A DNA stretch of 63,223 nt, the filler included, from Sluysia triapertura (Eukaryota): the NCBI GenBank assembly GCA_046118255.1. It is 5 parts of 5 records of this genome, joined end to end, with 100 filler letters (N's around TTAATTAATTAA, not from the genome) between each part and the next. Parts side by side here need not be neighbours in the genome. Positions count along the whole stretch, not along the records: positions 38,894 to 51,834 come from JBJNIA010070951.1; 4 more parts are not named here. One strand, given 5' to 3'. Below the pieces are notes generated by a model. The model ran no database searches, was not told the origin of the DNA, and worked only from the letters and a program-made list of their open reading frames with translations. Each line of letters begins with the position of its first letter. The stretch's first letter is position 1. Below, in pieces: positions 1 to 63,149 of the stretch. Both the position numbers and the translations under genes were made by a program.

Positions 1-833
1 ATCACTGTAATTACTGATTTTATTAAATCTGTCTTTACTAATTGTTTCGTACACAATGACTGTATTATGGATTAAAAAGTTTGAAATGTCCGATAAATTG
101 AATGTGGCTCCAAATAATCTATCAATCGATGTAACTACAAAATCAAGATTATCAATGATGGGATAGATGAAATAACTCATTACGTGATTAGTAGAAATAA
201 CATAAACATTTATTTCAACCTTTATAATAAATGCAATATCGAGTAAACCATCTGCATACGATATTGTCGATTCATTATAAAGAGATAAAAATAATAAATA
301 AATGTACAACACGTACTAACATATTATCTTGTACTACAAATTTTAAATCGTCTTTATCATAAACAGTAATTAATAATTTAAATGAAATGGTATCACTCTC
401 TTTAATATTGCCGTACCCTTTGAGAAATTCAATCCAGAGATTCATAGCTTCGCATACTTTATTCATTTGACTTACTGTAACATTACTTTTTAAAATTTTA
501 GACCGATGTTTATGTGTATTACGTGGGTATAATAACTCAAAAATGTAAATTTTAAACAACTTTTTAAGCTGTTTTACAACTGAAATAATGTACCGTATAT
601 TGTGTACGCATTTAATAAAACATCGTATCATCAACTTGAAATATTTGAATTTCGTATATACATCCATAATTGAGAAATTACATAAATTGCCGTTGTTAAC
701 ATAAAATTTATATTCAAATCGTTTGCATCCGCTAGATTCACTAAATTACTTATACAAGATATGACTAAATATCCATTATTAGTGACAATAACTATGGTCG
801 AAATAAACATAATTTTTGATTTAGTCAAAACAT
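1..833 (-). pseudogene. Frameshifted orphan ORF of cassette copy 1
   Basis: ATGTTT at 833, ~165 bp from the CCAAT pair; overlapping ORF pieces 631-828 and 275-667. Confidence 0.5.
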
Positions 834-993
834 AATGATTTTTATTTCAAAGCCAAGTTCAAGATTGCATCGTGAGTCTCCGTACATTTGTTTGTGTTTT
901 TGATATTTCTCCAACTCTGAAAATTTAGTTAAACAATTTTGTAAATATTTTATTGAATTGTTACCTGAAAATTTTGCATGTAAGCTATTTATT

Positions 994-1057
994 ATTAGTC
1001 ATCCAATCAGAAAGACGTATATGTGGATAATCAGTGTAAACTGATTGGACGGCTAAT
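994..1057. promoter_or_regulatory. Inverted CCAAT-box pair
   Basis: ATTAGTCATCCAATCAG (994-1010) / CTGATTGGACGGCTAAT (1041-1057), 15/17 complementary. Confidence 0.6.
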
Positions 1058-12654: not shown

Positions 12655-13150
12655 TCTAAAATAACACTCAAAATCTATTTTGAACCTTGCCGCTATCATT
12701 TATCGATAGCGTATTAAAATATTTTACAAAAATCATTTTATCCAGATTATTTATAAAATAATCTAGCTCAATATTATATATTTTTTTTATTTTATATTAT
12801 CATTTGTATCATATACATTTTTTGAATTAATCAAAATTACATTTTTTAAGTATTTATTGTAACATTTGAAACTGGTTCCTTTGTGAATCATATTAAAATA
12901 ATTAACAGGTTCATTTTCATTGAACCTAATTAAAATCTTAAAGCTAAAAGGTTCGTATAAGCGAATCTTATTAAAATCTCGTGATTACATTTTTAAAATC
13001 ACTTAAACTTCTTAAAATCTAAAATAAAAAGACCTCCTAAAAGCAAATTAATTGATCATAATAAATTAGGTTTTTCTTTAATAGTTAATTTTGAAAATCC
13101 AACGGTTGGCCATTAAATTCGTAAGTCCAATACGTTGGTGGACTCACTTC
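12655..13150 (+). repeat. Palindrome-array block R, copy A
   Basis: Three ~40-bp units GGTTC-N6-10-GAAYC-NN-ATTAAAAT at 12873-12979; hairpins at 12691-12711 and 12744-12764; aligns with rc 25245-25790. Confidence 0.75.
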
Positions 13151-27870: not shown

Positions 27871-28169
27871 GTAAGATTTTTGAACATTAAATTTTATTCT
27901 TAAAATAATTTTAGCTGCGTTTTAATTATAGAAAGTATAACAATAATGTGCATTATCTTTGTGGGAAACGAGTTAACACCTTCTGCACATAGTATTGCTA
28001 GTGTGTGGGAGCCGACAAAACTCGGATGTTATTATAATACATAAATTATTAAAGGTTATCGGATTGGGGTAAAATAGCCCGCATAAAATGTGTTAATTTA
28101 TATTATTCCTGGTAACTTAAACTTAAGTGGTGACCATGCAGGCATGATGAAAATACTAAATAAATATTG

Positions 28170-28945
28170 TATTAGGTTGGTGCATAAATTCGTGCGGTTT
28201 TATTTGTTTCAAAGAAAGCACACCAACTTCATGTTTTAACTGATTTGAGTTATATTCATAATATAGCTGAATTATCTATTTAAATCATTTCAGACTAACT
28301 TTCACTTTCATTACTCTCATTAAAATGGAGTGTCAGGTAAATAAAAATGAACATTTCCGGCATCAACATTTAAACGCTGAAGAAGTCACCAGAATGATTT
28401 GTGGAGAAAAGGCCGTCAGTGAACGAACAGCACAAAAGTGGTTTTCGAAATATAACAGTCGGTCAGGCTGACATAGTGACTTTGAACCAATTGATTCATG
28501 ATGATCCGCGTCAATGCACACCACAATTTCTCGACATCTCAAGAAAATGGGAAAAGTTCGGATCATTGGTACCTCACTTTCTCAAAGAAAGTCACAAAAA
28601 TCAACGTGTTTCGATTTCTGCATCTTAGTCCCAATAGATTTTCATCTTTTCCGCTCCATATTGAACCATCTTTCTGGTCTCATATTTGAAAACGAAGAAA
28701 CAATAATAACGTGGATTGAAGAATTTTCGACTAAAAATCACCAAACTTCTTTAAACGTGGAACTGACAAACTGCCGGAACGGTGGAAGGAAGTGATCGAT
28801 TGTGGCGGAGAATATCTCACCGATTGAAAGACTGAGATATTTGTTTTTTCTAATGATTCATTTTGTTATCTGGAATTTTTTGCATGGTTTTTATTCTTGA
28901 TCAGTATGCATTTTTCATAATTGTAAAAACCGTACGAACTTATTA
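28170..28945 (+). mobile_element. Mariner element, internally deleted
   Basis: TIR TATTAGGTTGGTGCATAAATTCGTGCGGTTT; N-terminus MECQVNKNEHFRH; VSERTAQKWF, DFHLFRS and KLPERWKEVIDCGGEY relics. Confidence 0.9.
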
Positions 28946-31900
28946 TAAATGTTATATTTGGAAAATATTTGATTTTAATATTACAAAACTTAACTGATTT
29001 GGTTAAAATGAAGAAACTTTTCATTGTTACAATCAAATGAAGCAGGTATCTTGTAGAAATAACAATAACAAACGGATTAAAAGAAGCTTGATAATAGTTT
29101 AAACATCATTTTTTGAAAAATCAATCCGTGACTAATGATTATATGGGAAATAGCAAATAAAAACTAGAACAATAAGAAGGTTTGGAAATAGGTGATGGTT
29201 TTTTAAGAATTACCCAATGAAAATTCTTTAATTTTTGAATTTAATGTACGCCTTTAATATTTAAAAAATTACTAAACATAAGCTTAAGATATGTACAATC
29301 GTTTGATTTTGGGTCTTCAGGTAGCATTGGGCATTGATGTTATAATTCCTGTTATATTTAGGCATTTTCAATATTAAATGAAATTCTATTTTATTATACC
29401 AATTCCATTCCATGTGTGTGTGTGTGTGTGTTAAAGTTAATCAGCACACTGTAGAATAAGTCATAATCTTAATTTTATGACAAAAGATTACCAAATAATT
29501 GATATTGATAACAAATATAAGTTATTTCCTATTTTTCCAATAATAATTATTAATAGTAATGTTATTAAAGCACAACTTTAGACATTAATAAGAGATTATA
29601 AAAAATAAAAGATCAAATAATAACGTTTAACACAATTATTAAACGAACTTACTTCAAAACAATAAATGATAAAACGTAATTCCTGTTAAATCATTTATTT
29701 GATGTCTGAACAGTTGTGTTTATCTTATATTTAAATTATCTGAAATGTGTATTGTCTATATAACGTCAGAATCAATAATTTAACGAAAGTTACTTTCTAT
29801 TTAGAGAAAATAAGCTTAATTCAGAACTTTAAATTTAATTTATTAATATTTTTTATTTGATTTGATTTGTCGATGAGTCATTTATATTGATTGAAGAACC
29901 TTTTCTTTTTTATCTCTAAATCACTTAGTTTATCCCGGATGCTGAGTTAATGCTTGTCAAAATGGAAGTGCGAACTAATGTAGTTCAACTTATTACTTTT
30001 GAATCTTATTTTTCAATTCCCGAAAGAAATCAATGATGCTTTAAGTTTAACAAATCTTTATTAGTAGTGCATAAGATTGTAGTAATGAACAAAGCAATCG
30101 AAAAATATAAATATATGAATAATTTATCCACACAAAAGTTTTTGTTTACGTTAAATATTGTTTTTAAATTTTATACTTGCTAAGGGAAACCCTATTTATA
30201 GTAATTTTTTCAATAATAAATTTACATTTTTACTTATTAACAAATCCACATAATATAAATTTAATAACAAATTTATTTAAATCATTCTAATTATAACATA
30301 CATTCAAATAATAATAATAACAATAATAATAGTAGTAATAGCAGTGGTAGCAGTAATTACAATTATAATTACAATAACATTGTCGATGATATACAAAATT
30401 ATTTAATAATAATAGTAATAGTAATGTTGTAGTAATTATTTTAGTACTTATATGTTAATACAAAGATCTTATATATATATCTAAAAATTTTAAATAATAC
30501 CGAGTATTGGCTTAAGCACGATAATCGATAAAAGTCCTTCGGAGAAATTAATAAAATAAATTTTGGTTTTCAAAATTTTGGCACATACATCAGAGCAGAC
30601 TGAGAATTCAGATTTTGATGTTTGCGTGCTGCAGTCAGCTGATCTGACTTCGAGAGTGTTTATTACACATCGCAACGAAAGATACTATCATTTGTGCAAA
30701 TGGTTGTGCAAGTAGTAATTGCCGTAGTAGTAGTGGTAGAAATAGTACTCTTATGCAACGAAAGAAAGTCAAAAATAGGGGGAAATGAAGATAATAAAAC
30801 AATGAAATAACAAGCAGTTGTTCGATCTATTATGTAATTTTTGCATGAATAGCGTAAACCTTGCAATCAACTATTGTACATTCTGTAGAGTATTTTGTAA
30901 TATATTAATATAGTATTTTGTCTTATTTATTATCCTTTCTCGATTTTCATTTTAATTGAATTTGTATTTCTAGTATCGATTTCTTCAGAAATACTTTCAA
31001 TAGAATTATTTTCGTTGATGTTTTGATCTGCTCCATTTGATTTCACTGTTAATTCATCTGAAGTCGTCATAAATATTCAAACATTTTAAACATCAACTCA
31101 AAATTACATAAGAAATTTTTGGAATACCTTCTAATTTTTAAATTAATTCTATATTTTTATTTTCCAAATATTTATATTACTTAATATTGATTGCAAAGAT
31201 TATGCAATAAATCGAAAAACCTTATAACAATATTTTTAACAGCAATGTTAAATTTTCGATTATTGTTGTCATGATTATGTGAGGTGACAAATGCTTCCTT
31301 TTTATGTGTTATTTGTTAATTTTGATAAATATGTTAGGTTTTGTTTGTTCAAGAATTTGTTTATCAAGATTATGTTTCGAGATTGGGTTTACTGCAATTT
31401 ACTTGTAAGAATCGTAATGACCTTTAGGAGTACAATTTCGCTGTATATGGCGTTTAGAAGGTGCCTCAAAATAAGGTTTTTTTTGTAGTATCCATCAAAA
31501 TCGCCTATAAACTTAAATTTCTTATTAGAAACATTCTTGAACTGCTTAACACAGTACTTAAAGTCAGTAGACATTTTTAAAATGGAATTTTTATTTTCCT
31601 AACTCGGGTACCCAATTCACAAAATATGAAGTAAATTTAATTTTTACGACTACGACAATTAAGAATGCTAAAGTCCTGTCATCGAAACCTCTTTGCATGC
31701 AGCGTTTCGTTAGATAAACTTACTTTAGATTTCCACAAATTCTGCTTTTTCATCGGCAATCTACTTCATGTCCCTTAAATACACAGCACTTTTCATGTGA
31801 ACAAGACTTCAATATTGATCGTACTTTATTCGCATAGTACTATTCCGAATACGAAACAGTGTAATTAATACGTAAAAATAAAAATACGTTCAGATATATA

Positions 31901-36457: not shown

Positions 36458-37399
36458 GTAAGTAATTGTTAATTTTGCAGTTTTAAAAATAATATAATGA
36501 TTATTTGGTATTTGTTATACTTTGGATTTTTATTTATTTTTTAAATATTTATGTATAATTTTAATTAATTCTGCTATGGTTTTTCTTGACTCTTAACCTA
36601 CGACAAAATATTTTTCAGAATGGTCCGCTTACAGTAAATAGGACGTTTCTGTACTATTTATCTAAACTCAAATATTATATGGTTAGAGTCTTATGATCGC
36701 TCAAAGGTATTATTTCAATAATTTATTAAACACAAAAGTATTAATTTTTATTCAAAAAACACAAAATTCTTAAACTGCTAAAGTAACAGAATGAGAAAGC
36801 AAAAGTAGTTAGTTTAATCAAGTGCTAATATATTTTGAGTGGAGTGTTTACCCCTCAATATATCGGGACTTAAAAAACTTTATAATTTAATATATAATTG
36901 CACAGGATGAGAAATCAAAAATATTTTTTTTTAAAGTCGATAATGAAGGTTGTTTCCTCAATTTGTTAGACATTACAAATTTTTAAATATCTATTCTCTC
37001 TTCTCTATATACAAAGTGTAGTTTAAATTCGTAGAAAATATCATTAATAATTCTTAATTCGGCCATGAATTTGTCAAACATGATAGTGATAACCTGTTAT
37101 ATATATTTATACATAAAACAAAATTTTGGCAATGTTGATATAAATGTTTAATTGAAACCTTAATTGAAACTGCTAATCATGAAGGTACACTTTGTCGAAC
37201 TTTACTAATGTAAAGTAAAATAAGATTCTCTGGTGTTTCTTTCTTAACTATATTAAAGATTACATTCCATATCTTTTAAGATTTTTTCATCATCTAAACG
37301 ATCTATGAATGTTTACTTCTATCGACTTTATCGCTGTTAGTATCGTCATCGATGATCTCTGAAACTGTATTTTCGACAATATTGTTAGACTTCATAAAA

Positions 37400-37472
37400 T
37401 GGACTGATCGGGGATCGAACCCGGGACCTCTCGCTGCACAGTTCGATGCTCTACCACTGAGCTATCAAACCC
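37400..37472 (-). pseudogene. tRNA-like sequence with corrupted anticodon arm (tRNA pseudogene or tRNA-derived repeat)
   Basis: A box TAGCTCAGTGG, B box GGTTCGATCC, D and T arms, imperfect acceptor stem, TTTT immediately 3'; T-arm resembles tRNA-Ala. Confidence 0.75.
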
Positions 37473-37734
37473 ATCTAACAACTTTAGATTATTATAGTCA
37501 ATTATACCAAATGGCACTTTAGGCCTGTATCACAACAATATGTTGATCTACCGGATTAGGAAAAATCTTTATTAATTTGTAAGTTTTCCCGAAATTGGGT
37601 TTTATTCATTCAAAAAGTTTCCCGTTTATTAAATAATGGAAAAATTGAGAAAAGTGAGGTTTTCTCCAAATGGGGTCGCACTATATTATTATTATTATCA
37701 TTATCATTATTATTATTATTACTAATCATTCCAG

Positions 37735-39842: not shown

Positions 39843-39854
39843 TTCTATAATAAT

Positions 39855-39970
39855 ATTAGACTTCGTAAATTGGACCGACCGATGATCGAACCCGAGGCAC
39901 TGAGCTGTCAGCCCCGTCTAACAATTTTTAGATTACTATAGTCAATTGTACTACATGGCACTTTAGGTCT
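39855..39970 (-). repeat. Second, internally deleted copy of the tRNA-like repeat
   Basis: Partial A box and B box at 39871-39915, plus flanks shared with 37385-37525. Confidence 0.75.
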
Positions 39971-40009: not shown

Positions 40010-40345
40010 TGACTTCAAAGGCTTTCTAAATCATTTTCAAACTTCAATAAGGCCTCAACACCTTATATAGGTCTTTCGAATGCCAAGGTATTCTTTATAG
40101 ATGTTATTATTATAGATGTTTTTACTTTCACGATTCTTATTTCGACAGTGTTTATAATGTTCAATCCATCAATTTGAACCCGTTCTCTCTTCATATTGTA
40201 GCTCCATATGTTTCTCCCTCATTTCCTAATACACAATTTGGAATACCAATTCTTCCAACTTTCTTTTTTGCTTAATTATATAGAGAACTGTTTGAGCACA
40301 AACTCTGTATTCTTCCGAAAGTTTCGTTGTGGATTTACCTTTTTC
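40010..40345 (-). mobile_element. Non-LTR RT relic (RTE-like)
   Basis: KGKSTT, MREKHME and DLEK fragments in RT domain order. Confidence 0.35.
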
Positions 40346-40694
40346 AATCATTACATTTAACTGAAGTTTTTGTTTCACAATCAGTACGACTATTTAGCGA
40401 TTAATTTAACATTTCTATAGGTTATTTTTCTAAAATAATTTAAAATTTAAAATAATTTTTAAAAAATTTAATTTTAATTAAAATTTTAATTATCATAAGG
40501 TATTTTAAACCTAAAGAAAAATATACAATACATACCGGTAAATCAATATCAAATCAATAAAATTAAAATTATACTTAAATAAATAGATAGATGCGTATTT
40601 GTTTAAACAATTATGCATTTTCTAAATATTATCCACGGATAATCGGGAGTTTACGGTAATGTCGAAATAATTTGCATGCACATACCGTAGTAAG

Positions 40695-41965: not shown

Positions 41966-42609
41966 TCTTAACTATTTTGCTAAGTAGGTATCTTTTAAAA
42001 CAGAACCGTCGCATATTTTTTGCTAACATATTTTAGAATTTTGGATAATAAAATTTGGTAACGTTAGTTGGTATTTATAATTTGATATAAGCGTATAATT
42101 AACATTTGAGAACTTCTTAGAACGTATATATTTAAGGTTGTTTGACCACATTACAACCTACGATAAAATTATACAAGTTTTGACAGAAATCTATATTAAA
42201 CGAATTTCGTAATATATGTCATAGTAAAAGACATTCTATACTTTAATCGTGCTTTCACATTACTTACAGATACGCCATTGGTAAGTCGTATACTGTAAGT
42301 GGACTCTGAATATTAATTTATTTTGCTGTTAGGTACGTTTTTAGTCAAAAGAAAAAATACTTTGGAATTGAGTTTATATTTAATATTGATTTCATTGTAA
42401 AATTAATACTCATTATTATTAGAAAGTACACTTTATGGTTGTTAAAATTTTGATCAAAACTCAAATTATGGTTAAAAATAATTATGAAAATTTTAAATAC
42501 CTTATAAAAAACCTATAAACAAATGAACAAAGATATGAAAATTTTTATTTAAAATTTTGAAACTTAAATGATTTAAATTTGATTTTCTCGTTCTTGACAT
42601 GAAATAGTG

Positions 42610-43560
42610 ATGATGTTCCGTCACCTAAAAACAAATTATAATTATAATTAATATTAATTAAGTAAACGAAAGTTGTTAATTTAATCTCTTTAATTTCGTG
42701 ACCTCTACGATTATTAACATAGATACGACCAAATTTGGCATAAAATATATTACTTACGATGTTAGATTCGTAGATTTTATGAAGCTCAATTTCGCAAGTG
42801 CTGTCTTTAACATCATTTGTAAAGGTAGAAGGATGTTTAGCGGTGAATCTACAGCTGTAGTTGTTAAATCCACATTTATTGTGAGTATTGATGCAGTTGT
42901 ATTTGTATTTTTGTTCGTACTTGTCTGGCGCTAATTTTTAAATAGAAGGTTATCCGATTCTTGGTTTATTTTTGTTATTTGAATATAAGTTTGAGCCGGT
43001 TTCTCATACAATTTCAAGACTTCTATACGCCGATGATAGAAAACATCAACAAAAGAATTATCATTTGACGTCAGAGTATTTTGGTTATAATTATGTTCAC
43101 AATCTTTGATTACACAATCACTAAAAACATGAATGTTGGAGAAATATTCCGTAAATTTACACTGCTTCCAAAATCTGTTTCGTACAATTTCCTTGTTAGC
43201 GACTTCAATGGTCGAACTTCATTTTGAGCAACGTGCCTCTGCAAAGAATTGGATCGATCAACAACATCTTGAATTGTAATAAGTAAGTTGCCATTCTCGA
43301 TTTTAAACCAATTTTTATCAACACTTGGTGACAATTGATCACTAACTCGAATTCTTGACGTGATAAAAGTTGAGACAATATCAGTAATTGACAAACTTCA
43401 TTTTTGTTTAGGTATACCATAACAGAATCGACATCTAATTCTATCAACGTTTTCTTGATCATCATTATTTCTTTGACTAAATCCATAAGTCTAATATTTA
43501 CGCAGTAATTAGTTGTTGATGAGACTGGCAAATCTAAATTTTGCTCGTTCAAACTTGTAC
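42610..43560 (-). pseudogene. Decayed orphan ORF, divergent from cassette copy 3
   Basis: Overlapping frameshifted ORFs 43205-43552 and 43110-43394; candidate acceptor tttttag near 42626. Confidence 0.45.
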
Positions 43561-44482
43561 TACTGTTAAAATCGTTTGGTAATTGTTTTAAGTTTTTCTC
43601 TTAATTTTTATTAGGATTAAAAAATTTTTATTTTCTTACAAATAAATTTTCTGCATCACGATCGGTTGTCCAACCTGTAATGGTCAACTCTTAATTTTTT
43701 TAAAAAAATTCGATAAAATAACTCTTAACATTCTAATATTCACATATCATCTGTACTACACCCATGGAACAATTCATCTGCCAAAGTTAAATTTTATTCA
43801 CAACCTTATAGCTTATACATCACATTTGCATCTAATACTACCAGTTTATATCAACAAATCCATCAAGAACATATTCACATTCACAGCAATCAAATAATAT
43901 CCACATTTGAAATTATTCACTTCACATCTTCAAATGAATTATAACATTTTAAATTCATCAATTATCATCACATAATCCCTAACAGCACAAAATATGATAT
44001 CACTCAAAAACAACAATAAATAAATCACATAAAACATTGCACATTAACCTTTTAAATATACCAAGAGTTATACTCTGAATTATCTTCTCACATATATCAA
44101 ACCACACTCTTCTTTGTTAAAATGTCGCTTTTGATCAGGAATTCACTTTAACATTCTACATTTTACTGTATATCATAGTATAAAATGTCAAGTATATAGG
44201 CAAAGATTTTCAGTTTAGATACATGCAGATTTATTGGGATACATTCGAAATATGTTTAGAAATTAAGAAAAGAAAAAGTAAGCTATTGTTAGTTAAGAAA
44301 ACAAGAATTTATGCATTTTTTGAATTACTTTACTTTGAAATAAAATAATATTAATAATAATAACATTATTTTATTATTAATGTTGCAAAAATTAGTATCT
44401 ACCACCACCAATATTGATACTACTCATTACAGTACATACATTTGTGTCAATATTGTGTCGAATTTTGCATTAATACTACTGG

Positions 44483-44536
44483 CATCCAATCAGAAATAAA
44501 CTCACAAAATTTCAGATAGACATTTCTGATTGGATG
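44483..44536. promoter_or_regulatory. Perfect 15-bp inverted CCAAT-box pair
   Basis: CATCCAATCAGAAAT-N24-ATTTCTGATTGGATG. Confidence 0.7.
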
Positions 44537-44706
44537 ACCAGTTAAAAATTGCTAAAAATAGAAAAAAATTACACAATTGTTAACGATTAAATATTAAATA
44601 ACAAAATTTTAAAAATTAATTTTTAATAATTATTTCGAGACCAACCATGCTTCTGATAACCGTTATAAACGTTGGCTTCAAATGGGATTACAAGACAACA
44701 AGCAGT

Positions 44707-45845
44707 ATGTTTAATTCATTGGAAATCTTCCAGCATTCTGGTAATGATTTATTTATCGAATCGCATAATGAAACATCCTGGTCTGATGTTTAAGTTAACA
44801 TGTCCACCGCGAGTAGAATACGTATGGATATTAAGATTTATTTAGTATATCAATATCTTAAGTATTATAAATCAATATTCATATTGAATCACCATAACTT
44901 TAGCAGTCTCAATAATTTGTTAATAAAAGATTACAATGTATTTCAGAAGTTGAGATTAGAGCTCAAGACTAAACCAATTAAGTTCATCATGTTAACTGTA
45001 CCAATTTCAAGTAATTTATGGCGTTTATGCTCTTCTAAATATTATAGTTTAACGAATCTAGCAGGATCGATTTCTCTATGCCAACAGCCAACAAGGTCAG
45101 CTAACAATAACCGTTCTACTTCCAACAAACCACAATTGTATTATTTAAATTACATTAAGAAATTAACATATAAAGTATCTAAAGAGCCGGACAAATACAT
45201 TTCATTTATGGACACTCAATTTTAGATCAACGGGTTTACTCGTCTAACCCATCATATTATCAAGAATCACCTTTGTGTGTTGAAATTAAATTAGTATGTA
45301 CAAGTAAAGTTCACATCTCAGTATCAAAATTAATGATTGCCAAATCAAGTATAATTAATAATGATTTCAAAAATTATGAACTCGCTAACCTCAATGACGA
45401 ATGCCTAGAATCTCACCACATGAATTGCATGGAGGTAACTTTTGCAACCAGATCTGTGTGCACAGTACATTTAGTATCGGAACGTACATTTACCTACCTA
45501 TTCGTTAATCATACAAATTCGTTCAACAGCTCATTCAATACTCAACAATCAAAAAATCGTTTTTCTATATATTCAGCAAATGGCGATTTCAAAGTATCAA
45601 GTAATGTCAAAAGTAAACACAATGCAAACGACGAAACCATATGCTCAACGCTACTATGGCGATGTACACTATATAAAGGATGCACAGTTGGTCAAGTTGA
45701 CGAACCTAGTAGCTGCAATATGAAATCAAGAAACGTAACTTTTTATTTTATTAAAATTAAAATTTCTCGTAAATTATATAACTTCTTTTTTTTCTGTTAG
45801 ATGATCATTTAGAAGTTAGACTTCACTACGTGCACAAAGGTATAG
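44707..45845 (+). pseudogene. Decayed orphan ORF with candidate 66-nt intron 45735-45800
   Basis: ATGTTT start, two in-frame stops and one frameshift; gtaact...tgttag|ATGATCAT. Confidence 0.5.
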
Positions 45846-46090
45846 TGGTCAATTGGATAATACATAATTTGATACAAAATAAAAATCTTTTGTTTGCTTA
45901 TGACTTTTTCTGTTTTCATTTAAATTAAATTTTAATTGTTGTAATGATTTTAAATGTTTAGTGCTTAGCATCAATAATAAAGATAATAATAAGGATTATA
46001 TCAATTTAATAGCAGATTCAATTAATTTATATGTGATTTTAAAAATTTTTAATCAAACAACACAAAAAAGAACATAATACTAATTTAAAT

Positions 46091-48900
46091 ATGTTAGCAC
46101 AATTAATGACAGTAATTACAATAATTTTATGTTTACCGGCTGCACAATCCATTAAGGCATTTGATTGTAAAAATACAACACATGGAGCAAAATTTTCAAT
46201 AATGGATGTAAAAAACAATGTTCAAATAAATACGTAAATACGTATCAAATAGATTTATTATACAATGCGATCGCATTTATCATATTCATCAAGAGAGAGG
46301 ATACATTTATACTAGATCATATGAATGTGCAGTATCCAGAGAGATATTAATTAGATTCTATGGATATAATCACCATGTTTCATTGATTAAACAGCCTACA
46401 GCAGAAAAATGCCTTGAAAGTCTACCAATGCACTTCAAACCCATGAAATACAAATGGACAGCAAAATAATTCTTAAAACAAAGAAATATTTGCAATAGGA
46501 AATCTAGCCTACGATGGTACTCCTGAATATGAAGAATTTTGGCTTAAAGGTAATAAATTCTACAAGCACAAGTTCTTGATAATTATACTATTGAAATTAA
46601 GAATAGTGAAACAGCTTTTGACCCAGACACAAAGACAATGTTAGAAATGTTTTTTTTTGCAAATTAAAATCATGTTTATATGGAAAATTTGCTATTGTTT
46701 GTGACGTGGAAATACAATTGCGAATGTAGTTTAGTATACTTAAGAACAGTGAACTTTTATAGAATGTTATTTTAAATAATGATAATAATGGAAAAAATGT
46801 TGTGTCTTTATTTAAATTTATTAACAATAACTCAAAATGTGTGCAAATTAATAACTACTCTGTAATCACATAAATAATAAATATTTTCAATAAGTTAATA
46901 AATAAAATACTCAAACTCCAAGAGTGATACAACACACAAAATGTTAAAGTCCTTTGTGGAATAAAAGAAATTTATGATGCGGGTGTTATGAAACCACGAT
47001 AATAATACCAAAGAATATCACTTTATGGCTTGGTCAAGTTACCAAAATGAAGCTTCAATCACAATGTTTAATGCAATTGTGTCGAAACAGTTTTCTTAAT
47101 GGGGTCAACGTTTTTCTTCACTTATATATTTGATAAAAAATAGTAGTTTGATAATTGCTAAGGAGATTAGAAATTAGAAATATATAAGTAATTACTCTAG
47201 GAAATTATTTATTCTTTTAAGTCCGTTATAAACCGACCAATTTTATAATTAAACTTCTACAAGAGTTTGTGTCGACTTCCAATTTATTATCTTCCAGCAA
47301 TGCTTACTGTTCAAATGTATCAACTTAAAATAAATATAAAATTAATTTAACACCAAATTTCTTATCCATAAAATTTTTTTTATACAATACGTCATATGTT
47401 AACCGTACCTTATAGGTCGATTTCAATAAATTGACTAATTGACATCTTAACTGAGGCTTGAACATTACAACATTATAGACAATTAATTAATATAACTTTT
47501 ATAATGCTATCCGCGTCGACGTGCTTAGCAACATCTCACAATCAATAGTATTAATGAATTTCAATATTATTCCATAGTTCGCACATTATTTTCTCATGTA
47601 CAGATATTTTTCATAAAATTATTAAACCATTCAATTTTTAATTAAATTAATTAATAAAGGTACTTTTGTATTTTCAAGAGTTCTAAAACCTTCTAAAGGG
47701 TTCTCTCTTCGTATCTTTCTTTCTTTCAAATTTAAACATTTTACACGTATATCCAATTAACAAACATAACTCGTCATAATATTTTACTTTATTCTTTTAA
47801 TAATACTTCTTAATATACAAATTTAAATTTAAAATTTAAAGAGAAAACATTAGTAGAAACAAGTGCTAATTGTATTAATTGCTAATAAATTAGGTTTAAT
47901 TGAAAAATACGATCAGACAATTTATAATACTAATTATAAAAAATATTTGTAACTAAAAGCAAAGTGAAGTAGACTAACTTTCATTGATTGCGTAAGGATG
48001 TTAATTTTATAACTCATTTTAACAATTAAGGCAAATAGAAGATTTTTATAGAGAGATTATCATTAATGATTGTAAATTAAATTGTGACATATTTCGTACA
48101 AAGTAGCATTGATTGTAAGTAATCCTAATAAGGCCACTCCAGTTATTCTGTTAGGTAAAGAAATTTTTTACAGAATAATTGAAGAATTATTACAAACTTT
48201 TACTTGTAAAGAGGTTGATATTTCTATTAACCATACTAACGAATGTACTCATGAATTTATAAAAATAAAGTTGATATTTCTATTAACCATACTAACGAAT
48301 GTACTCATGAATTTATAAAAATAAAGTTATTTATATGGAACCGGTCACAAGATTATTACTACCGAACGCATCAAAAGTTAAATGTCCACCTTTATTTGCT
48401 CCAGCTCTAGCTTTATCACCATCAAGAAACCTATAAATTATAAATTTACAAAATGATATATATTTTGATCGCATCCAAGATTTAATGAAGAATGGTTTAT
48501 ATGATTAAAAAAGCTTGAAAATATTTGTTATTTTCACAAACCCGAAACATAATTTTGACTGAAACAGCAGAAACTTCCATATGAGACATAACTGATAAAC
48601 CAAATTATGAAAGATTATTATTTTCAAAGATCACTTTGAAAAGGCAGAAAATGAAGCAATTAAAATGATATGGGGAAAAGTTTTAATTTTTGTTCAGACG
48701 ATGGCTGGTTTTACGGGATTATACTATATAATTGTTATAATAAAATTACTTTTTCAACGTGTATTGCTCACCTATGAATTATGTAAAATTATCGGTTTCA
48801 TTTGGAAACTAATTTTAGGTTGACCATTTGTTTCAAAATGTTTGCACGAAAGATTTTCTAAATTGGAAGAAACAATACTAAAATGAGTGACGAAAACAGA
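46091..48900 (+). pseudogene. Chuvirus-type/gB-like class III viral fusion glycoprotein, decayed and split by a ~1-kb insertion (about 46800-47840)
   Basis: Signal peptide then AFDC...FSIMDV; HQERGYIYTRSYECAVSR...YGYNHHVS; AIGNLAYDG; KDVNFITHFNN; FTCKEVDISINHTNECTHE; YMEPVTRLL..ASKVKC; LMKNGLY; TM WGKVLIFVQTMAGFTGLYYIIVIIK, all in the expected order. Confidence 0.75.
48214..48328. repeat. Perfect 56-bp tandem duplication
   Basis: GTTGATATTTCTATTAACC...ATAAAAATAAA twice. Confidence 0.95.
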
Positions 48901-50602
48901 AATTGAAAAAATTGAATTAAATGCTAAATTATCACGTTAAAGGAAATCTTAGAAAAAGATCAGAATCTATCCAGAGATTACACATACATTATGTAATGAT
49001 AATAAATCATCTCAACAATATGTAAATGTAGTATCTGAACGAAATAAAATAGAGATAATATTAATAATCTCTCGCAATATTTCTTTTGATACTTAAAATA
49101 AATTTTATTCTGAGTTATTTATCTATTGTGAACACAATCTTTCTTTTACATAACTTATTTTAATACATTTAATACTTAATTTATTTCATTAAATATCGCA
49201 ATAATTTAAATTGATATTAACATTGATTATGCATTAATAATTAAATCGTTAATAAAAATATTTATATTTATTAATTAATTTCAAATTATAATTTTAGTTC
49301 AGAATGGTGTATGAGAAGGTAAAAGAAATTCTTTAAATAGAAGAACATAAAGTTAAAGATTCAGTTAAAGGTTTGGTTCCGAATGATTTGTGGTTACTCA
49401 AACTTCCGAATTCATGCTTAATTTCAAAAAATATTTCGAAAAAAACCAAAAAAGCGTAAAATATATTGAAAAATGATGCTTATAAAATGCTTGTGAATAT
49501 TAAAATAATACTTATTTCCTTTCTATAGTAAAGTATTATAATAATAAATCTCATTAAATTGTAATTAATTTTGTAAAAGAACTTTAGACATAATGATCAT
49601 TCTTCATTTTGAAATAAACTTATTTTTAATAAAATAAATTCATTCTAATAAAATAATTGTTAAAATTAGTAAGATTATCAATTTAAAATGAGATTACATA
49701 CAGTTACTATAAATTCAAAATTTAATAACAAGTGTTAATGTATTTTTAGAATTCTTAGTATTTTATAAAATTTAAAAAATTTTATAAATAAATATTTAAA
49801 ATAATATTATTAATTAAAAAATATTGTGAAATAAAATTATCAAATTGAATTGAAATTATTATTAAATTAAAACCTTTTAATTTTATTAAATATTAAAAAT
49901 TTTGAAATTATTATTAAAAATTTATAAATAAATAAATATTTAAAATAATATTATTAATTAAAAAATTTTTAAATTTAAACACTTTAAAAGTTTTATCACT
50001 AAACAAAATTACCATAGCTACTGTGTATAAACATAAAATACTATATAAGGAATGAAAAATTATAGTATTGTACACACGTATTATTAATTTTTTTAAAGAA
50101 GATTACATTTAAGAAACAGAAGGCATAAAATTTTAGCAGCGATCTTATTTGTATAAATAGAATTACAGTTTGATCAAGAATAAGAAGATATTCATATTTA
50201 AGACGGCATTTACAAAACAGAAAATATAGAATTTTTGTATAATAAGGAATAACAGTTTGATTGTTAGTTTATTTGCATCATTAAGATAATTTTTTAAAGT
50301 GAATATAAAATATACTCAATTTATACTTAAATATTTTTTGTAATGTTTCATACCATATAAAATCTTCTTAAAAATCTAGATTATTAAATATTAATTGATA
50401 AATTAATATTTGCACTAATTATTCTTAACGTCCTATATTATTAAATTTGAACACTATATAGACAATTAATATCGCATAAAATCGTTCTGATAATTAGACA
50501 TTAATTAATAAAGTAAATAATTTCCCAATTTATTATAATGTATTATAATACATATGTTTGCTTTTTCCAAAATATATTTATTTACATAGTTTTGTATTAT
50601 TA

Positions 50603-51832
50603 TTAGCTTGTGCATAACTGTTTTATCATTACTTTGTATAATTGTATTGGTTTGATTATGGAGTAGATAGTATTTTTCGAGTCATTACTATTTGAAAATG
50701 TTCTTTGGACGAGTGTTAAGGGCTTATTATTATAAGATTTATGAAAGGAATTAAATGGTTTAGATGATTTAACGTTGCGACAGGAACTAACTGCGTAGTC
50801 CATGTTTTTATACACAAAGATCTCACGTAGAGCAATTACGTGGTTTTTAATGAAAGGAGATTCATTCAATTGACGTCGATTTGCAAATATGGGTTGTTTA
50901 CGCATAAGTTGTTTTAAAGAGATTACGCATTTATTCTCTTGGCTTATATTATAAAAACTGGCCTTAATACAAAAAACGTTGTTTGCTTTAACTATTTTAA
51001 ATTCTAGTCCTATAACGTTTAGGATCTGTTCTTCCATAAATTCAATATCTTTAAGTACACAATGAAAATGAGAGAAAACACAGTACTCGATATTAAGTTT
51101 TATTAATACAAAAAGTTCCTGTAATATTGTTATGTGTTTACTGGAAATTGATAGTAATTGCGTCCCTGGTCCGTTCACGTATCCAATTTCGTGATTGTAT
51201 AGCTTGGTAAACCTATGATAGATAAAAATAATATAAATATCTTTAAGTAAATGTTTAATAGAACTGAAAATTAGAAGTTTACCTTTAGTGAATAAAGTTA
51301 AAGCTGTGCATTCGGATACGAATCTGACAGAGTATTGTGGAGCTGCAACAGCATCCCATGTTGACGAATCACGCATAGTAAGACCATACATTATGTATTC
51401 ACGTTCAGCCCGGTTTACGTAGTTTATATTCTGCTTGGCGTTATTTACATCATTCACGCTAATTCTCTTGATAATACTTCGCTTCACACTATAGACATTA
51501 CATAGACTAAGTTCCAGACTAATTGCATCGGTTACGTGCTTCTCGGTACTATTTACATCGTTTACACTAATTCCGTTTATTGTACTTCGCTTCATACTAT
51601 TGACATTACATAGACTAATTGCATCAATCTCATCGTCTTTGATCTGCTTCATTTTATGCATATTAATTACTTGAATCATGTCATTTCTGCTTCGCTGTAA
51701 GACATTTACATAAATTACATCGATTAGGTCATCCTTGGTTGGAGATGAATAAAATATAATTTTGTGCTGAAGTTGGTCTGGTATAACTGAAACTCGATTT
51801 TCAACTAATTCATACGGTATTGTTACTGCTAC
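50603..51832 (-). CDS. Uninterrupted orphan ORF of at least 409 aa, open to the contig end
   Basis: 358-aa ORF plus 51 stop-free upstream codons; internal ~36-aa tandem repeat. Confidence 0.55.
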   Translation of the reverse strand, partial: VAVTIPYELVENRVSVIPDQLQHKIIFYSSPTKDDLIDVIYVNVLQRSRNDMIQVINMHKMKQIKDDEIDAISLCNVNSMKRSTINGISVNDVNSTEKHVTDAISLELSLCNVYSVKRSIIKRISVNDVNNAKQNINYVNRAEREYIMYGLTMRDSSTWDAVAAPQYSVRFVSECTALTLFTKGKLLIFSSIKHLLKDIYIIFIYHRFTKLYNHEIGYVNGPGTQLLSISSKHITILQELFVLIKLNIEYCVFSHFHCVLKDIEFMEEQILNVIGLEFKIVKANNVFCIKASFYNISQENKCVISLKQLMRKQPIFANRRQLNESPFIKNHVIALREIFVYKNMDYAVSSCRNVKSSKPFNSFHKSYNNKPLTLVQRTFSNSNDSKNTIYSIIKPIQLYKVMIKQLCTS

Positions 51833-51934: not shown

Positions 51935-54118
51935 TTTTTTTTGAGTTTTACATTTGAAATATAAATAAATAATGATAATGTAAATGATAAATATATATTA
52001 TATATATAATATACAATAAATAATAATACAAAATAAAATGTTTTATTCAATATTTACAGAAAATGGACAGTTGGGAAAAAGATCAGGCTAGGCTGCTGAA
52101 GATTGTTGAGGAAATGAATAGTGGATCAAGCAACAGTGAGTCTGAATCTGATGCTGACAGTGCTGAAAATAACAATTCGGATAGTGAAGATGATGAATCA
52201 ACTACAGATGAGGAATATGAAGCACCAGAAGAACCAGAAAATGATGAGACATGGCATACCAATACAACATCTATAAGAAACTTTTCTTTTGATGCAGATG
52301 CCGCTGGGATTCTTTTGGATATAGAAGAAAATGTTTCTCCAATTCAGGTTTTTGAAAAAATATGGGATGACCAAGTAATGGAAATGATTATAAAATCTAC
52401 GAATGATTACGGCATAAAACTTTGCAATCAAGCACGGCCACATACAAGGCATAGTAGAAAGGCAAATTTCAAAAATACTGATATGATCGAAATGAGAAAG
52501 TTTTTAGGTTTGTGTTTGCTTCAGTCCCAGCTAAAATTCTCCAGCATTAGAAAACTCTTTTCCATTGATGCATTACATTACCACCCAGCATTTCCGTCAC
52601 AAATGTCTGGAAGGAGGTTTGAGCAAATATTGAGGTGTTTTTGTGTTGAGGAAGAAAATTCAAACGACCCTTTGAGGAAAATAAAAATATTTCTTGATTT
52701 GCTCATACAAAAGTTTGCGAATGCATATGCACCAAATGAAGCATTATCATTAGATGAATCGTTGTTATTATTTCGAGGAAGGCTTTATTTTCGCACGTAC
52801 ATGAAAGGCAAAAAGGCAAAATACGGAATTAAATTCTATGAACTTTGTTCAGCCCAAGGTTACGTTTTGAATATAGAAGTATACAAAGGCCATCGAGAAA
52901 ACGATGAAAACATGACAACTATTGAAAGTCTTGTGATGCGATTGATGCAGTCATACTTAAACAAAGGCCATCATTTGTTCATGGATAATTATTACAACAG
53001 TCTACCATTGTCTAACAAATTACTTAGCAAAAAGACACATGTGACAGGAACTCTTCGTGTAAATAGGAAGGGTCTGCCACAAGAAATAACACGTCGTAAG
53101 CTTAGAAAAGGAGAACATGTATGGCGACGCCAAAATCAGACTTATGTGTCCAAATGGAAAGATAAACGGGATGTGCTATGTCTAACAACAGCTTACCACC
53201 CAAGCATGATAAACACAGCTAACCGGCGACAACAGGAAAAGAGAAAACCAATTGAAATAGTGAATTATAATCAGAATATGTCAGGTGTAGACAGAGCAGA
53301 TCAGATGATGTCCTATTATTCCTGTCCACGGAAGACAATTAGATGGTATAAAAAGGTAATCTTTCATCTACTGGATGTAGCAGTATGGAATTCTTTCTAC
53401 ATCTTTAAAGAAAAGACAGGTTCTCAAATGAAGTATATAGAGTACAGGGAAGCAATCATACGATCTCTAACTGGTATAGATAATAAACGGGATGGAAGAA
53501 CTTTGGTTCAATTTAAACGTGCACAAATCCAAACCAATGAAATCAACAACAATGGAACACAGCATTTTCCTGAGAAAATTTCACCTCCTGAAAATTATCA
53601 GCGAAAAACATATTTTCAGCGTTGTAAACAATGTTATAAACAGGGAATAAGGAAGGAAACATCATATTGCTGCAAGAATTGCATGTCAAAACCTGCACTG
53701 TGTCCTGCACCATGCTTTGAAACATGGCATACCGAAAATAATGTATAATAATTATAAAATTATAATAAATTTTTTTGTCATTTATTTATTTTTGTTTGAT
53801 TAAGAACTAACATTTCGTGTAAAACTCCCAAAAATACTTTGTTGCATACAAAAATTACTTGTTTGAACCATTAAACCTGTCATTTACGTTTTTAAATTTT
53901 TGCTGTTATAGCCGCCATCGTCCTATCACTTAGTGTATAGAGTCCGCTGGCGCCATGACGGTTATAGCCGCAACCTAATTAAAGGTACTAAATTAATCAA
54001 AATTAAGTTTATTTAAGCAGAAAGAGTAAAACTATACTTCTAACATTCTAAAAATCACAAAAACATATAGTGTCAATTTTCGAACTTCGCTTGTTCCTAC
54101 TGTCCGTCAACGTGTTAA
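51935..54118 (+). mobile_element. piggyBac element (left end lost in the gap)
   Basis: Sub-terminal repeat GTTATAGCCGC twice (about 53905 and 53961); candidate right end CCGTCAACGTG-TTAA at 54104-54118. Confidence 0.7.
52063..53748 (+). CDS. Intact piggyBac transposase (PGBD4-like), 561 aa
   Basis: Acidic N-terminus; DDD motifs SLDES, FMDNYY, GVDRADQ; C-terminal Cys-rich domain CKQC...CKNC...LC..PCF..WH. Confidence 0.97.
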   Translation: MDSWEKDQARLLKIVEEMNSGSSNSESESDADSAENNNSDSEDDESTTDEEYEAPEEPENDETWHTNTTSIRNFSFDADAAGILLDIEENVSPIQVFEKIWDDQVMEMIIKSTNDYGIKLCNQARPHTRHSRKANFKNTDMIEMRKFLGLCLLQSQLKFSSIRKLFSIDALHYHPAFPSQMSGRRFEQILRCFCVEEENSNDPLRKIKIFLDLLIQKFANAYAPNEALSLDESLLLFRGRLYFRTYMKGKKAKYGIKFYELCSAQGYVLNIEVYKGHRENDENMTTIESLVMRLMQSYLNKGHHLFMDNYYNSLPLSNKLLSKKTHVTGTLRVNRKGLPQEITRRKLRKGEHVWRRQNQTYVSKWKDKRDVLCLTTAYHPSMINTANRRQQEKRKPIEIVNYNQNMSGVDRADQMMSYYSCPRKTIRWYKKVIFHLLDVAVWNSFYIFKEKTGSQMKYIEYREAIIRSLTGIDNKRDGRTLVQFKRAQIQTNEINNNGTQHFPEKISPPENYQRKTYFQRCKQCYKQGIRKETSYCCKNCMSKPALCPAPCFETWHTENNV

Positions 54119-59190: not shown

Positions 59191-59553
59191 AATAATAAGT
59201 TCGTGCGGTTTTTTTACAATTATGAATAATGCATATTGATCAAGAATAAAAACCATGCAAAAAATTCCAGATAACAAAATGAATCATTAGAAAAGAATTC
59301 TCTGCCACAAGTGATCACTTCCTTCCACCGTTCTGGCAGTTTGTCAATCTCACGTTTGAAGAAGCTTGGTGATTTTTGGTCGAAAAATTATTCAATCCAC
59401 GTTGTTATTGCTTCTTTGTTTTCAAATGTTAGTCTAAAATGATTTAAATAGATAATTCAGCTGAATGAATATAACTCAAATCAGTTAAAACAAGATGTTG
59501 GTGTGTTTTCTTTGCAACAAATAAAACCTCACGAATTTATGCACCAAACAAAT
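59191..59553 (-). mobile_element. Mariner miniature derivative, same family as 28170-28945
   Basis: Aligns in reverse complement with both ends of the 28-kb copy. Confidence 0.9.
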
Positions 59554-62149
59554 ATAATCTTAAAAACTACAAAACCTTGCGATTTATTGGGTAATTATAT
59601 ATTTAAAATATTAAATAAATATTCAGTTTTATTTAATGTAATTTTGATTTATATGGTTTGGTTGAAAGATATTAATAAGTTGAAAATTATTCGAAAATGA
59701 TTAAGATGTCAGTGCGAATATTCGAGAAATATTAGTGATTGTGCTGTGTGAAGTTCATTAAAAGTACAAGTGGATATATGAGAATAATGGTGCAGGGGAG
59801 TGATGATGGCTTCGCAAGATTTGGAAAACTGTGATAGGTGTTATGTGATAGTGGATATTGCTTATGTTTTGATTGGGGTTACCAAAATATTATAAGTTAT
59901 TGAGTAATACACAATGTTGTTGACTTTGTGAATTGTAGCTGAATTATTTTAAATACTATCTTCTTTGGTTCTATCACTGTATAATAATAATGATAGGAAA
60001 TAGTATAACTATTTTTAGATAAATAATGATGAAACAAATCATTAATATTAGTAATATTGATAAAATAATCATTTATACAATGTCCCAGTTAAAGAAAATC
60101 ATATTTTAAACACAAATTATTAAATAGTTTTAAGTTTTGTATTAATTTTAGGTTAATTTTATTTACTTACTAACATAAGTATATTATTTTTAAATAATAT
60201 TGAATAATTTTAATTGAAATTTATTTTCATTTTTTTTATAAATTTTCTATTTGTATGTAAAGTCAATTTTCATTTTAATGAATTTAACAGAATTACAAAA
60301 ATGTTTTCTATTTTAAAAAATTTGTGTCATTATTATGTTCGACGAAACTTAAAAATACTAATTTATTGAATTAAAAATCAGTCCAATCAGATACCTTTAT
60401 TTGATTTTATAATAATCACAATTTATTTACTGATTCGTTGAGATGGAAATGAAATTTTTGAAACACCAAAAAGATATCTATCAAGCACGTGCAGGTGAAA
60501 TTTGTGCTACATAAAAAAGAAAGAACAGATTGTTGCATTCTAACGGATGGAACCTAATTATCATTGCCATTAACAATGGTAGTAATATAAGGTGTCCAAA
60601 ATATATCCGAACCGCAAACTTAAATAAAAATTAGATATCAAAAACGACAAATTTAATCGGTATATTTAGTATTTATAAATGTTCCATACAAGAACGACAT
60701 CTTTTGACAACACTGCGTCATACTTTTTTGGCAAGTTTCCTCTGAAATTTGGTTCCATTGGTGCTGAATACTTTGTTTTAGTTGATCAATTGTCCTAAGC
60801 TTTTTAGGATAAACTGCGTTATTCAGTAATTCTTAATAACTAATTCTAAATCTAAAGTCTTTCGGTGCATTTTTAAGAATTAGGGTCCAGAAGCACACGT
60901 TGAACAAAAATCAAGCAATGACGTCAGAACAAAATCAATAAGATCACACAACAAAAGGCTACTATTGGCAGAAGAAAATGAATAGTAGCGAAGATAACAT
61001 AAAATGACATAAAAGAAGAAATTACATTTGTCGTTTTTGATATCCAATTATTATTTAAGTTTGTGGTTCGGTTACTTTTATTCATCAATTTTAGTCTAAC
61101 TTCAAAACGTAGAGAAAAAATAATTAACTTTTTTGAAAATATTTCAAAATATATCAAGTACTAACATTAGGCTAAATAGTGATACCATGGAAATGGAGAT
61201 CCATTATGAATGTTGGATAAACAAGAAGAAAATTACAAAAAGGAAGATTTTTATAAGGTTTGAAGAAGATTATGTATAAAATGCTATGAAGTGTATCGTA
61301 CTAAACAATAACGACTTATTCATTATTTACTCAAATTCTAAATGAAATTCAAAGATAAGTAAAATAAATAGTAGATCTAAAAATAATTTGACTACCGAAA
61401 TAAAAGGAAAGTGATCCACTAAAACATTGTTCGAGTAACCTAAGGATTAGGATACAAGATTATAAAAATACAAAGAAATATATTTTAAAAGAAAAGAATT
61501 TTAAATATAGCAATTAACAAAATGATGTTCAATTTTATTTCTAAAAAGAGATCCAGTTTAGTTGCATTCTGGATGGATGTCGGTACGGAAAAGAAGAAGA
61601 AACTGCAAAGAAATATTCAACAAAAAGAAAATTGATGGATCTTGGGATTCGGAAAATCAATCTAATTCCAATTTTATTAAATAATCACTTCAGAATTATT
61701 CTTAAACTTATAAAAACGACTTCCTATTATCCCAATCAATTAATAAACTTCTTATATGATTTGATTTCTATTAAACTGAATATTGATTAACGAATAACGA
61801 ACTTTATTAACAACTATAATACAATGAAAGAGTGTAACCAAATAGAAATAACAATAAAAATGGATATTGTGCAATTAAAATCCCAAATGATCTTTAATTT
61901 TATCTTTTAATAATATTAAATTGAATATAAATTTTCCTCTCAGTAGATTGGAGTAAACAAAATTAAATAAATAATTTTTCAGAAATATAACATCGCAATC
62001 CTTGCTAGAATGATAAATCAAACTCAGCTTGTTTTCCTAAAACGCTCTACTAATAAATGATCTTAACAATGCTGAACGATCTGAAGAGAATAGCCAATTA
62101 AAAATTGATTATTGAATTGGCCTGAATGATAAAATGTTCTTTCCTCGTT

Positions 62150-63052
62150 AAAAAATGTATAAATAAACTATTCATCAGCCAATAGGAATCAATGGAATCT
62201 ATTTTTAGTAACACCTTTTCTTTTTCATAAATTAACGATTTTAAATTGTTTTTGTCCATCGATTTAATAATGTGAAACGGTTATAATGACAATTTAACAG
62301 CTGATTTAATTTTAGTTACTTTATTTTCCATATTTTTCGATACATTAAATTACGATTCTTGTTATTGTAATAAGGTAAGTTCTATTACAAAACTAATATT
62401 TATTGTAGATAATGTCCAAACATATCACAGAAGCTGAAGATATAGTAAATTTAAATCTTACTTATTTTCTCAATCTATTATGAATATTTCTTCTGATTTC
62501 AGAAAATATTTACATTAATCTTGCTTGATTAGTCTTATTTACTTCGAAAAATTGTGGATATTTTCCAGAAAAATCAATATTTGATTTAAAATGTTTGATT
62601 TATCGTTTAGAGATAGTACGTTTATAATTGTTTTCAGTTTTAAATCTCAATGTTAGTTTAGTAAGTTGTTGTTCGAATAGAAAAATAGCATACGTGTCAA
62701 TACATTCATTTTGAGTCAGCTCAAAGAAGAAGTTTAACATGTTAAAGATTATTTTACTGCTAGACGTGAAATGAATTATATATAAAACTGCACTAGCACT
62801 CAGCAATGTTCCTTTCTCGTCAAAAACTTGAGTCTTCTTAATTTTATGATTTTGTAACAAGTTATTGAATTTTATATCTTTACACGTTAATTTAACAAAT
62901 TGATCTTCAAAATTATTAGAAAATTTATCTTTATTTATTTCTACGAAACATGAGAACATTAATTTATCGTTTATAAAGAACAGGAAGACTTTAAAATTAC
63001 TAATACGGAATTTTATTATTAAAACATTGATTGTTATGAAGTTCAAGGACAA
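62150..63052 (-). pseudogene. Decayed orphan ORF, possibly cassette-type
   Basis: 150-aa ORF with coding-like frameshifted continuation; no recognisable motif. Confidence 0.3.
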
Positions 63053-63116
63053 ATGAATTCTATTAGAGTTACAGATTTTGTTTTTTATTTTTCTTTCTTC
63101 TGTTGACCCTTTGCAG

Positions 63117-63149
63117 TACTGGAATCACCGTTGCGCTTCACCAACCCTG
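63117..63149 (+). CDS. Candidate 33-nt symmetric micro-exon (LESPLRFTNP)
   Basis: Long pyrimidine tract, ttgaccctttgcag|...|gtacga; phase 1 joins 58401-58424 in frame. Confidence 0.55.

Follow-up and report, generated by a model that had tools for sequence, protein, structure and literature searches.

Contents of the window and of the env locus

We analysed a 63,223-nt stretch of eukaryotic DNA (the window) that has a GC content of 26% and four N-linker joins. It contains an O-GlcNAcase host exon (E=5e-10), a weak Est1/SMG6-like match among the host exons (E=0.02), and many transposon remnants (Table 1). The Rfam search returned one tRNA-like match and nothing else; it lies within a short repeat, present in two copies, that may be a tRNA-derived SINE.

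Performing six-frame translation, we recovered every glycoprotein motif that a preliminary description of this DNA had listed, on the + strand and in the expected order. The ATG at 46091 opens a hydrophobic N-terminal stretch followed by AFDC..FSIMDV. Downstream, we find Q..YEC.V.R..GY.HH.S at about 46285-46385, C.EV.I...T.ECT.E at about 48200-48260, MEP.TRLL....C from 48335, GLY at about 48495 and, by eye, a hydrophobic TM-like stretch at about 48680-48755. When stops were read as X, one frame matched the Pfam family PF24664 (Monjiviricetes_fusion) at E=2.7e-9, and its 36 bits clear the curated gathering threshold (cut-off 27). The other two frames of the env region gave zero Pfam matches.

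We also aligned the locus in a frameshift-aware manner to P0001, the best database relative (see below). Positions 46112-46757 aligned to P0001 residues 378-600 and positions 47869-48871 to residues 638-1000. The two halves scored 331 and 653, whereas the shuffle maxima were 37 and 50 and none of the 30 shuffles reached either score. Identical codons amounted to 272 of 552 aligned (49%), a count that takes in one doubtful 30-codon segment. The long helix of the central part is identical to P0001 at 22 of 27 positions, and the profile matches in this part had E=1.7e-6 and 7e-12. The env remnant is thus a real glycoprotein of the Monjiviricetes/chuvirus-type, gB-like class III family.

Table 1 Features of the env locus and of its surroundings in the window
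Feature	Coordinates	Strand	Remarks
Long-ORF cluster	275-846	-	no convincing family
Non-coding repeat, copy 1	987-2057	-	about 1.1 kb; copies 62-66% identical (blastn)
Weak protease-like piece	7245-7138	-	E=0.04; follows the gypsy RT fragment
Gypsy RT fragment	7857-7606	-	E=5e-12 (P0006)
Non-coding repeat, copy 2	13136-14318	+	as copy 1
Long-ORF cluster	14417-16189	+	no convincing family
Non-LTR RT remnant	18524-19981	+	E=2e-8
Mariner/Tc1-like fragments, pair	20351-20572 and 24006-24242
Mariner/Tc1-like fragments, pair	28163-28946 and 59192-59561
Two-copy short repeat	37372-37526 and 39843-39970		tRNA-like match at 37400-37471 (-), Rfam
CENP-B/pogo-like DNA-binding domain	40229-40393	-	E=1e-4
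Gypsy RNase H fragment	40889-40656	-	E=8e-8; strand opposite to env
Long-ORF cluster	42545-43600	-	no convincing family
Non-coding repeat, copy 3	43686-44628	+	as copy 1
Orphan ORFs between repeat copy 3 and env (long-ORF cluster)	44647-45800	+	no convincing family; not common to the other repeat copies
Two short intron-like stretches	45735-45962		GT...T-rich...AG, by eye; after ORF 45183-45800
Signal-like hydrophobic segment and ectodomain start (AFDC..FSIMDV)	46091-46210	+	P0001 residues 375-411
Ectodomain, N-terminal half (domain I/II region)	46213-46757	+	pieces across several frames; P0001 residues 411-600
Unalignable DNA interrupting env	46758-47800		about 0.93-1.05 kb; right boundary anywhere within 47690-47870
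Central env: TNY motif, long helix, C.EV.I..T.ECT.E	47869-48264	+	P0001 residues 638-788
Perfect 56-bp tandem duplication within env	48214-48328	+	Tandem Repeats Finder, 100% match
C-terminal env: EP.TR, GLY, membrane-proximal helix, TM, tail	48311-48871	+	PF24664; P0001 residues 789-1000
Possible env-to-protease linker remnant	48872-49093	+	IYP at 48965, same frame as the TM
Long-ORF cluster	50603-51832	-	no convincing family
Weak integrase zinc-finger-like start	51793-51602	-	E=0.012; opposite to env, not collinear with the RNase H fragment
Intact piggyBac transposase ORF	52027-53748	+	573 aa; E=9e-83; adjoins an assembly join
Long-ORF cluster	62600-63124	-	no convincing family

The env copy is a pseudogene

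The signal, ectodomain and TM of a type I membrane protein are all present as remnants, and the ORF is not intact. We counted about 12 frame breaks, 6 stops, the 56-bp duplication and ~1 kb of unalignable DNA; stops and frame breaks extend into the C-terminal part. The locus had been taken for a gene missed by ORF calling, but with these lesions it is a pseudogene, and the copy encodes no working protein today. Of the 2.8-kb span likewise given for the glycoprotein, only about 1.9 kb belongs to it, and from 46758 onwards at least 929 bp cannot be aligned.

The interrupting DNA gave nothing below E=0.17 in a six-frame Pfam search and zero matches to the 17 relatives described below, and its alignment score against P0001 was reached by 6 of 30 shuffles. 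We looked for a clear TSD or TIR of the ~1-kb DNA and found none. Downstream of the TM, a YP motif similar to the IYP at 48965 occurs between the TM and the protease in 8 of the 12 relatives examined. The linker alignment scored no better than shuffled sequence, 8 of 30 shuffles attaining its score, and the assignment of this segment as a remnant of the env-to-protease linker is suggestive only.

We considered sequencing error as the source of the breaks: some breaks lie at homopolymers, but the nearby 573-aa piggyBac ORF is intact. Because of this intact ORF, the stops and the 1-kb insertion, decay is favoured, though not proven.

The nearest relative is a Ty3/gypsy polyprotein

Searching one frame of the env region against 1.84 billion representatives with phmmer (E<=0.001), we obtained 17 relatives. 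P0001 was the best (E=1e-41), and the next stood at 1e-18. By Pfam, PF24664 is present in all 17; an aspartyl protease follows it in 11, RT/RNase H is present as well in 3, and an RdRp, nucleoprotein or BEL/Pao-type family in none. P0001 (2627 aa) shows the layout CCHC (by eye)-env-PR-RT-RH-IN, with env in frame upstream of pol, and the nearest PDB match of its pol is Ty3-G (E=5e-119). The signal-like segment, which begins with an ATG at our locus, is internal to the polyprotein in the relatives.

P0001 was the top match for all five single-frame env pieces (48-81% identity). We built a tree of 13 rows, leaving out four short fragments and P0011; the single-frame env read was sister to P0001 (support 99/98), with a long branch because about 35 codons are out of frame. 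Since the tree holds no genuine chuvirus G, we argue against a viral donor from search ranks and identity values. P0001 is 37-43% identical to most other relatives, and the env remnant, at 49% to P0001, therefore belongs to a distinct sub-lineage. TNY is found in the remnant, T[ND]Y in 10 of the 11 long relatives and TEHP in P0017. Word-indexed homologue searches matched for none of three queries (the env C-terminal frame, the O-GlcNAcase exon and the P0001 env region); these are weak negatives because known relatives were missed. Judged by these sequence comparisons, the env is closest to that of GAG-ENV-POL Ty3/gypsy polyproteins and is probably neither an endogenised chuvirus G nor the env of a BEL/Pao element.

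We also checked the fold on an intact relative, P0004, modelled by AlphaFold with 11 sequences (pLDDT 62, pTM 0.37). The best PDB match of this model by Foldseek was HSV-1 gB (E=2.8e-11, TM-score ~0.2, ~10% identity), and the best viral-model match (BFVD) was the chuvirus G of Tacheng tick virus 4 (E=1.4e-33, 20% identity). Atlas look-alikes of a relative were mostly Negarnaviricota clusters (0.95-0.96). A class III (gB-like) fold is thus predicted, with low global TM-scores and from a model of P0004, not of the env remnant itself; to herpesvirus glycoprotein B, the moderate model and the low identity and TM-score would indicate a relationship at the level of fold only. The proposal of a chuvirus-type, gB-like family, which had named a profile or structure match to such proteins as its test, is therefore borne out at the family level by PF24664 above its threshold and by the model of the relative, while the donor looks like a retroelement.

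Just upstream of env, P0004 residues 9-80 form a weak Bcl-2-like domain (Pfam E=0.00096; PDB E=0.01), and P0002 has a stretch similar to this region.

Comparison with described env-carrying elements

Excerpts of PMC13524379 describe GAG-ENV-POL Ty3/gypsy elements with a gB-type env in Nematoda, Bryozoa and Platyhelminthes. We compared by eye 6 Platyhelminthes_C1a, 10 Bryozoa, 13 Insecta and 18 Nematoda rows of its supplement 2. Among the rows shown there, TNY occurs in 6 of 6 Platyhelminthes_C1a rows and TEHP in 13 of 13 Insecta_C1 rows. The motif series of P0001 and the env remnant, TNY included, was matched by eye only by the flatworm rows among those compared. Smed_errantivirus_1-6 in the same excerpts (cysteine class C1a, HSV/gB-type env) are alike, by eye, in the motifs of env domains I-II, with YQE..EC, CG..SH.S, DG.C, FD..T..M, C.L..LK...F, TP.VL and KCG..VY.TNY in common. 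As presented there, the gene order of the Platyhelminthes errantiviruses is the same as that of the database relatives of our env. Unlike these elements, the env remnant is broken and lacks gag, pol and a recognisable LTR pair.

The planarian Burro, according to the sections of PMC6431247 used here, is a giant gypsy-like element whose env stands in frame after a BCL2-like domain and before the protease; this env resembles mononegavirus fusion proteins, and decaying Burro fragments with stops and frameshifts are mentioned. The weak Bcl-2 match of P0004 stands at the same position before env as the BCL2-like domain in those sections. P0001, with 2627 aa, is about half of the 4873-aa Burro ORF1 given there. 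Burro sensu stricto is characterised in these sections by a length of >30 kb, an ORF1 of about 4900 aa and MATH, BCL2, dUTPase, BIR and ankyrin domains. We detected none of these domains near env, nor did any Burro part besides env turn up in the window, and by Pfam P0001 has no MATH, BIR, ankyrin or dUTPase family. Burro sensu stricto was rejected, as its domains were seen neither near env nor in P0001. Troyka, from what the consulted part of PMC12440569 describes, was set aside as not relevant.

Traces of gag, pol and LTRs

Upstream of env, the score of P0001 gag was reached by 19 of 30 shuffles; downstream, the PR and PR-RT scores against P0001 were reached by 8 and 15 of 30. One of three gag tests, with P0003, gave a score of 52; the shuffles peaked at 49, and 0 of 30 reached it. 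This alignment ends near an N/R-rich stretch and is lost with low-complexity filtering; the marginal score is probably compositional, although it may be a faint gag trace. Neither a long direct repeat bracketing env (43000-51800) nor a recognisable LTR pair at the locus was found. The 1.1-kb repeat described below might be an old LTR. With no significant gag or PR-RT-RH-IN at the locus, we are therefore dealing with an env-derived fragment and not an element, and we infer its parent from the relatives instead of seeing it. As pol ought to be detected more readily than env, its absence counts against the explanation that we prefer below.

Elsewhere in the window, the gypsy RT fragment shares GAPATFQRCMNFIL with P0006 and belongs to the same gypsy clade as the env relatives, so this clade did occupy the genome. 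The LTR-type pol remnants that we detected in the window are gypsy-like only, BEL pol having been screened through Pfam only. A candidate second G at 62806-62648 (P0003, E=0.009 and 0.001) was rejected since the G profile did not recover it.

The 1.1-kb repeat and the orphan ORFs

Upstream of env lies the third copy of a repeat, called a cassette in the preliminary description. One strand of the repeat is A/C-rich. We rejected a coding repeat: in none of the frames are the substitutions consistently biased towards synonymous changes. Towards the 5' end of the first two copies, TGGTGGAC looks like a candidate primer-binding site. The repeat ends in an inverted CCAAT-like pair, which lies near the 3' end of copy 3 as CCAATCAG/CTGATTGG.

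The longest ORFs of the long-ORF clusters reach 174-427 aa, compared with 166 aa for the longest ORF in 20 shuffles. A weak PHROG match (phrog_37082, E=2.8e-5) was found for ORF 15112-15840, for which a phage tblastn gave nothing. ORF 50606-51832 did not match the profile of the relatives (probability 1.8%). Between copy 3 and env, the two main orphan ORFs gave zero matches in Pfam, PHROGs and NCBIfam; the second (45213-45797) had no Atlas match, and its fold was uninformative (pLDDT 31). The intron-like stretches that follow suggest that the ORF upstream of env may belong to a spliced gene. These units of repeat plus orphan ORFs are a more open question than env in the window.

Env had been placed ~250 bp downstream of copy 3 and tentatively assigned to the cassette element. 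The distance holds only if ORF 45183-45800 is included in the cassette; the three copies have DNA in common only as far as ~44628, which leaves about 1.46 kb to the env ATG. Env and copy 3 do lie on the same (+) strand with no assembly gap between them. The assignment itself finds no support in the other copies: the G profile detects none near copy 2 and copy 1 runs off the window, so 0 of 1 testable copies back it. A link between cassette and env is unsupported within the window.

Origin of the env remnant

We conclude that the locus is most probably a solo, pseudogenised env from a Ty3/gypsy (Metaviridae) GAG-ENV-POL element of the Burro-like/flatworm errantivirus kind. It is probably an ordinary genomic fossil and does not stem from the integration of a free-living RNA virus. 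Judged by the relatives of the element, the host would be flatworm-like. Intact relatives encode a single polyprotein of gag, a linker (sometimes Bcl-2-like), env and PR-RT-RH-IN, in this order. From what is known of the family, the hydrophobic signal inside the polyprotein and the TM at the C-terminal end of env would thread the ectodomain into the ER to give a type I membrane protein, proteolysis would release env from its gag and pol neighbours, and as a trimer the class III (gB-like) fusogen would let particles pass from cell to cell. In this copy, gag and pol may have been lost by deletion or rearrangement, after which env would have decayed neutrally and taken the ~1-kb insertion.

A different mobile element, with the 1.1-kb repeat as its terminus or promoter and the orphan ORFs as cargo, could instead have captured an env of the same clade anew, as a gene on its own; we regard this as unlikely. 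The link could still exist because long orphan ORFs (156, 243 and 205 aa) follow all three repeat copies on their own strand and because the signal-like segment of env opens with an ATG, about 17 codons after an in-frame stop. The common strand of env and copy 3, uninterrupted by an assembly gap, the inverted CCAAT-like pair just ahead of the orphan ORFs and the lack of a convincing gag or pol trace beside env point the same way. However, the G profile detects none beside copy 2, which has >4 kb of DNA downstream, or beside copy 1, where the downstream DNA is <1 kb. The ORFs after the copies are mutually dissimilar: of 225 ORFs compared, a single weak pair (E=0.018) emerged. Env is also much more decayed than the preceding ORFs (19 lesions in 552 codons versus 2 in 385, p=0.002), a p-value that is soft because the upstream ORF block was chosen for its openness and has no reference. 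It is correspondingly improbable that the repeat is the end or promoter of an undescribed cargo element that shuttles orphan genes and carries a re-captured, free-standing env with its own start codon. If true, this would be an enveloped or env-carrying element without its own gag-pol.

The preliminary description had left the donor between a jingchuviral G and the env of an enveloped retroelement, and had mentioned BEL/Pao among such elements; the evidence favours a retroelement env, of the Ty3/gypsy kind, over the other two proposals. Direct integration of a reverse-transcribed G mRNA from a jingchuvirus or another monjiviricete, as a non-retroviral EVE, is very unlikely. A solo G with its own ATG would fit it. 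So would the Pfam family and class III fold, which are alike in the Jingchuvirales (Chuviridae) G and the arthropod G-derived EVEs treated in excerpts of PMC10084718, the Negarnaviricota look-alikes and BFVD chuvirus G matches of a relative, and a flatworm-associated chuvirus genome in a table of that source. But by far the nearest sequence is a gypsy polyprotein, whereas the identity of viral G proteins to the clade member tested is <=20%. No L (RdRp) or N domain was found in the 45 ORFs across the window, the 30 shorter flanking ORFs and 3 frames, and the further frames scanned. An env from an Anakin-type BEL/Pao element is still harder to credit. Anakin, in the part of PMC7642597 consulted, is likewise an LTR retroelement, with a chuvirus-type glycoprotein serving as its env; it is a BEL/Pao element (Belpaoviridae) of mosquito hosts, whereas our remnant would belong to the Metaviridae. 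No BEL/Pao-type family appears in any relative or beside the locus, the pol of the best relative is Ty3-like, and the pol remnants in the window are of the gypsy type.

As a Ty3/gypsy remnant, the locus adds one decayed copy, of a divergent sub-lineage, to an already published class of GAG-ENV-POL elements. It also calls for caution: "chuvirus-like G" matches in such genomes can be retrotransposon env and not records of RNA-virus infection, so tallying them as EVEs would overstate the chuvirus host range. The locus would gain greater weight only if the neighbouring repeat is a new type of element carrying env and orphan genes.

We made two further observations on the relatives. Protease-like domains are repeated in several of them. 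Past the integrase, P0001 (~2260-2627) and P0006 (~2480-2855) show by eye a second membrane-protein-like region, with no Pfam match, that consists of a signal-like stretch, a beta-rich region and a TM.
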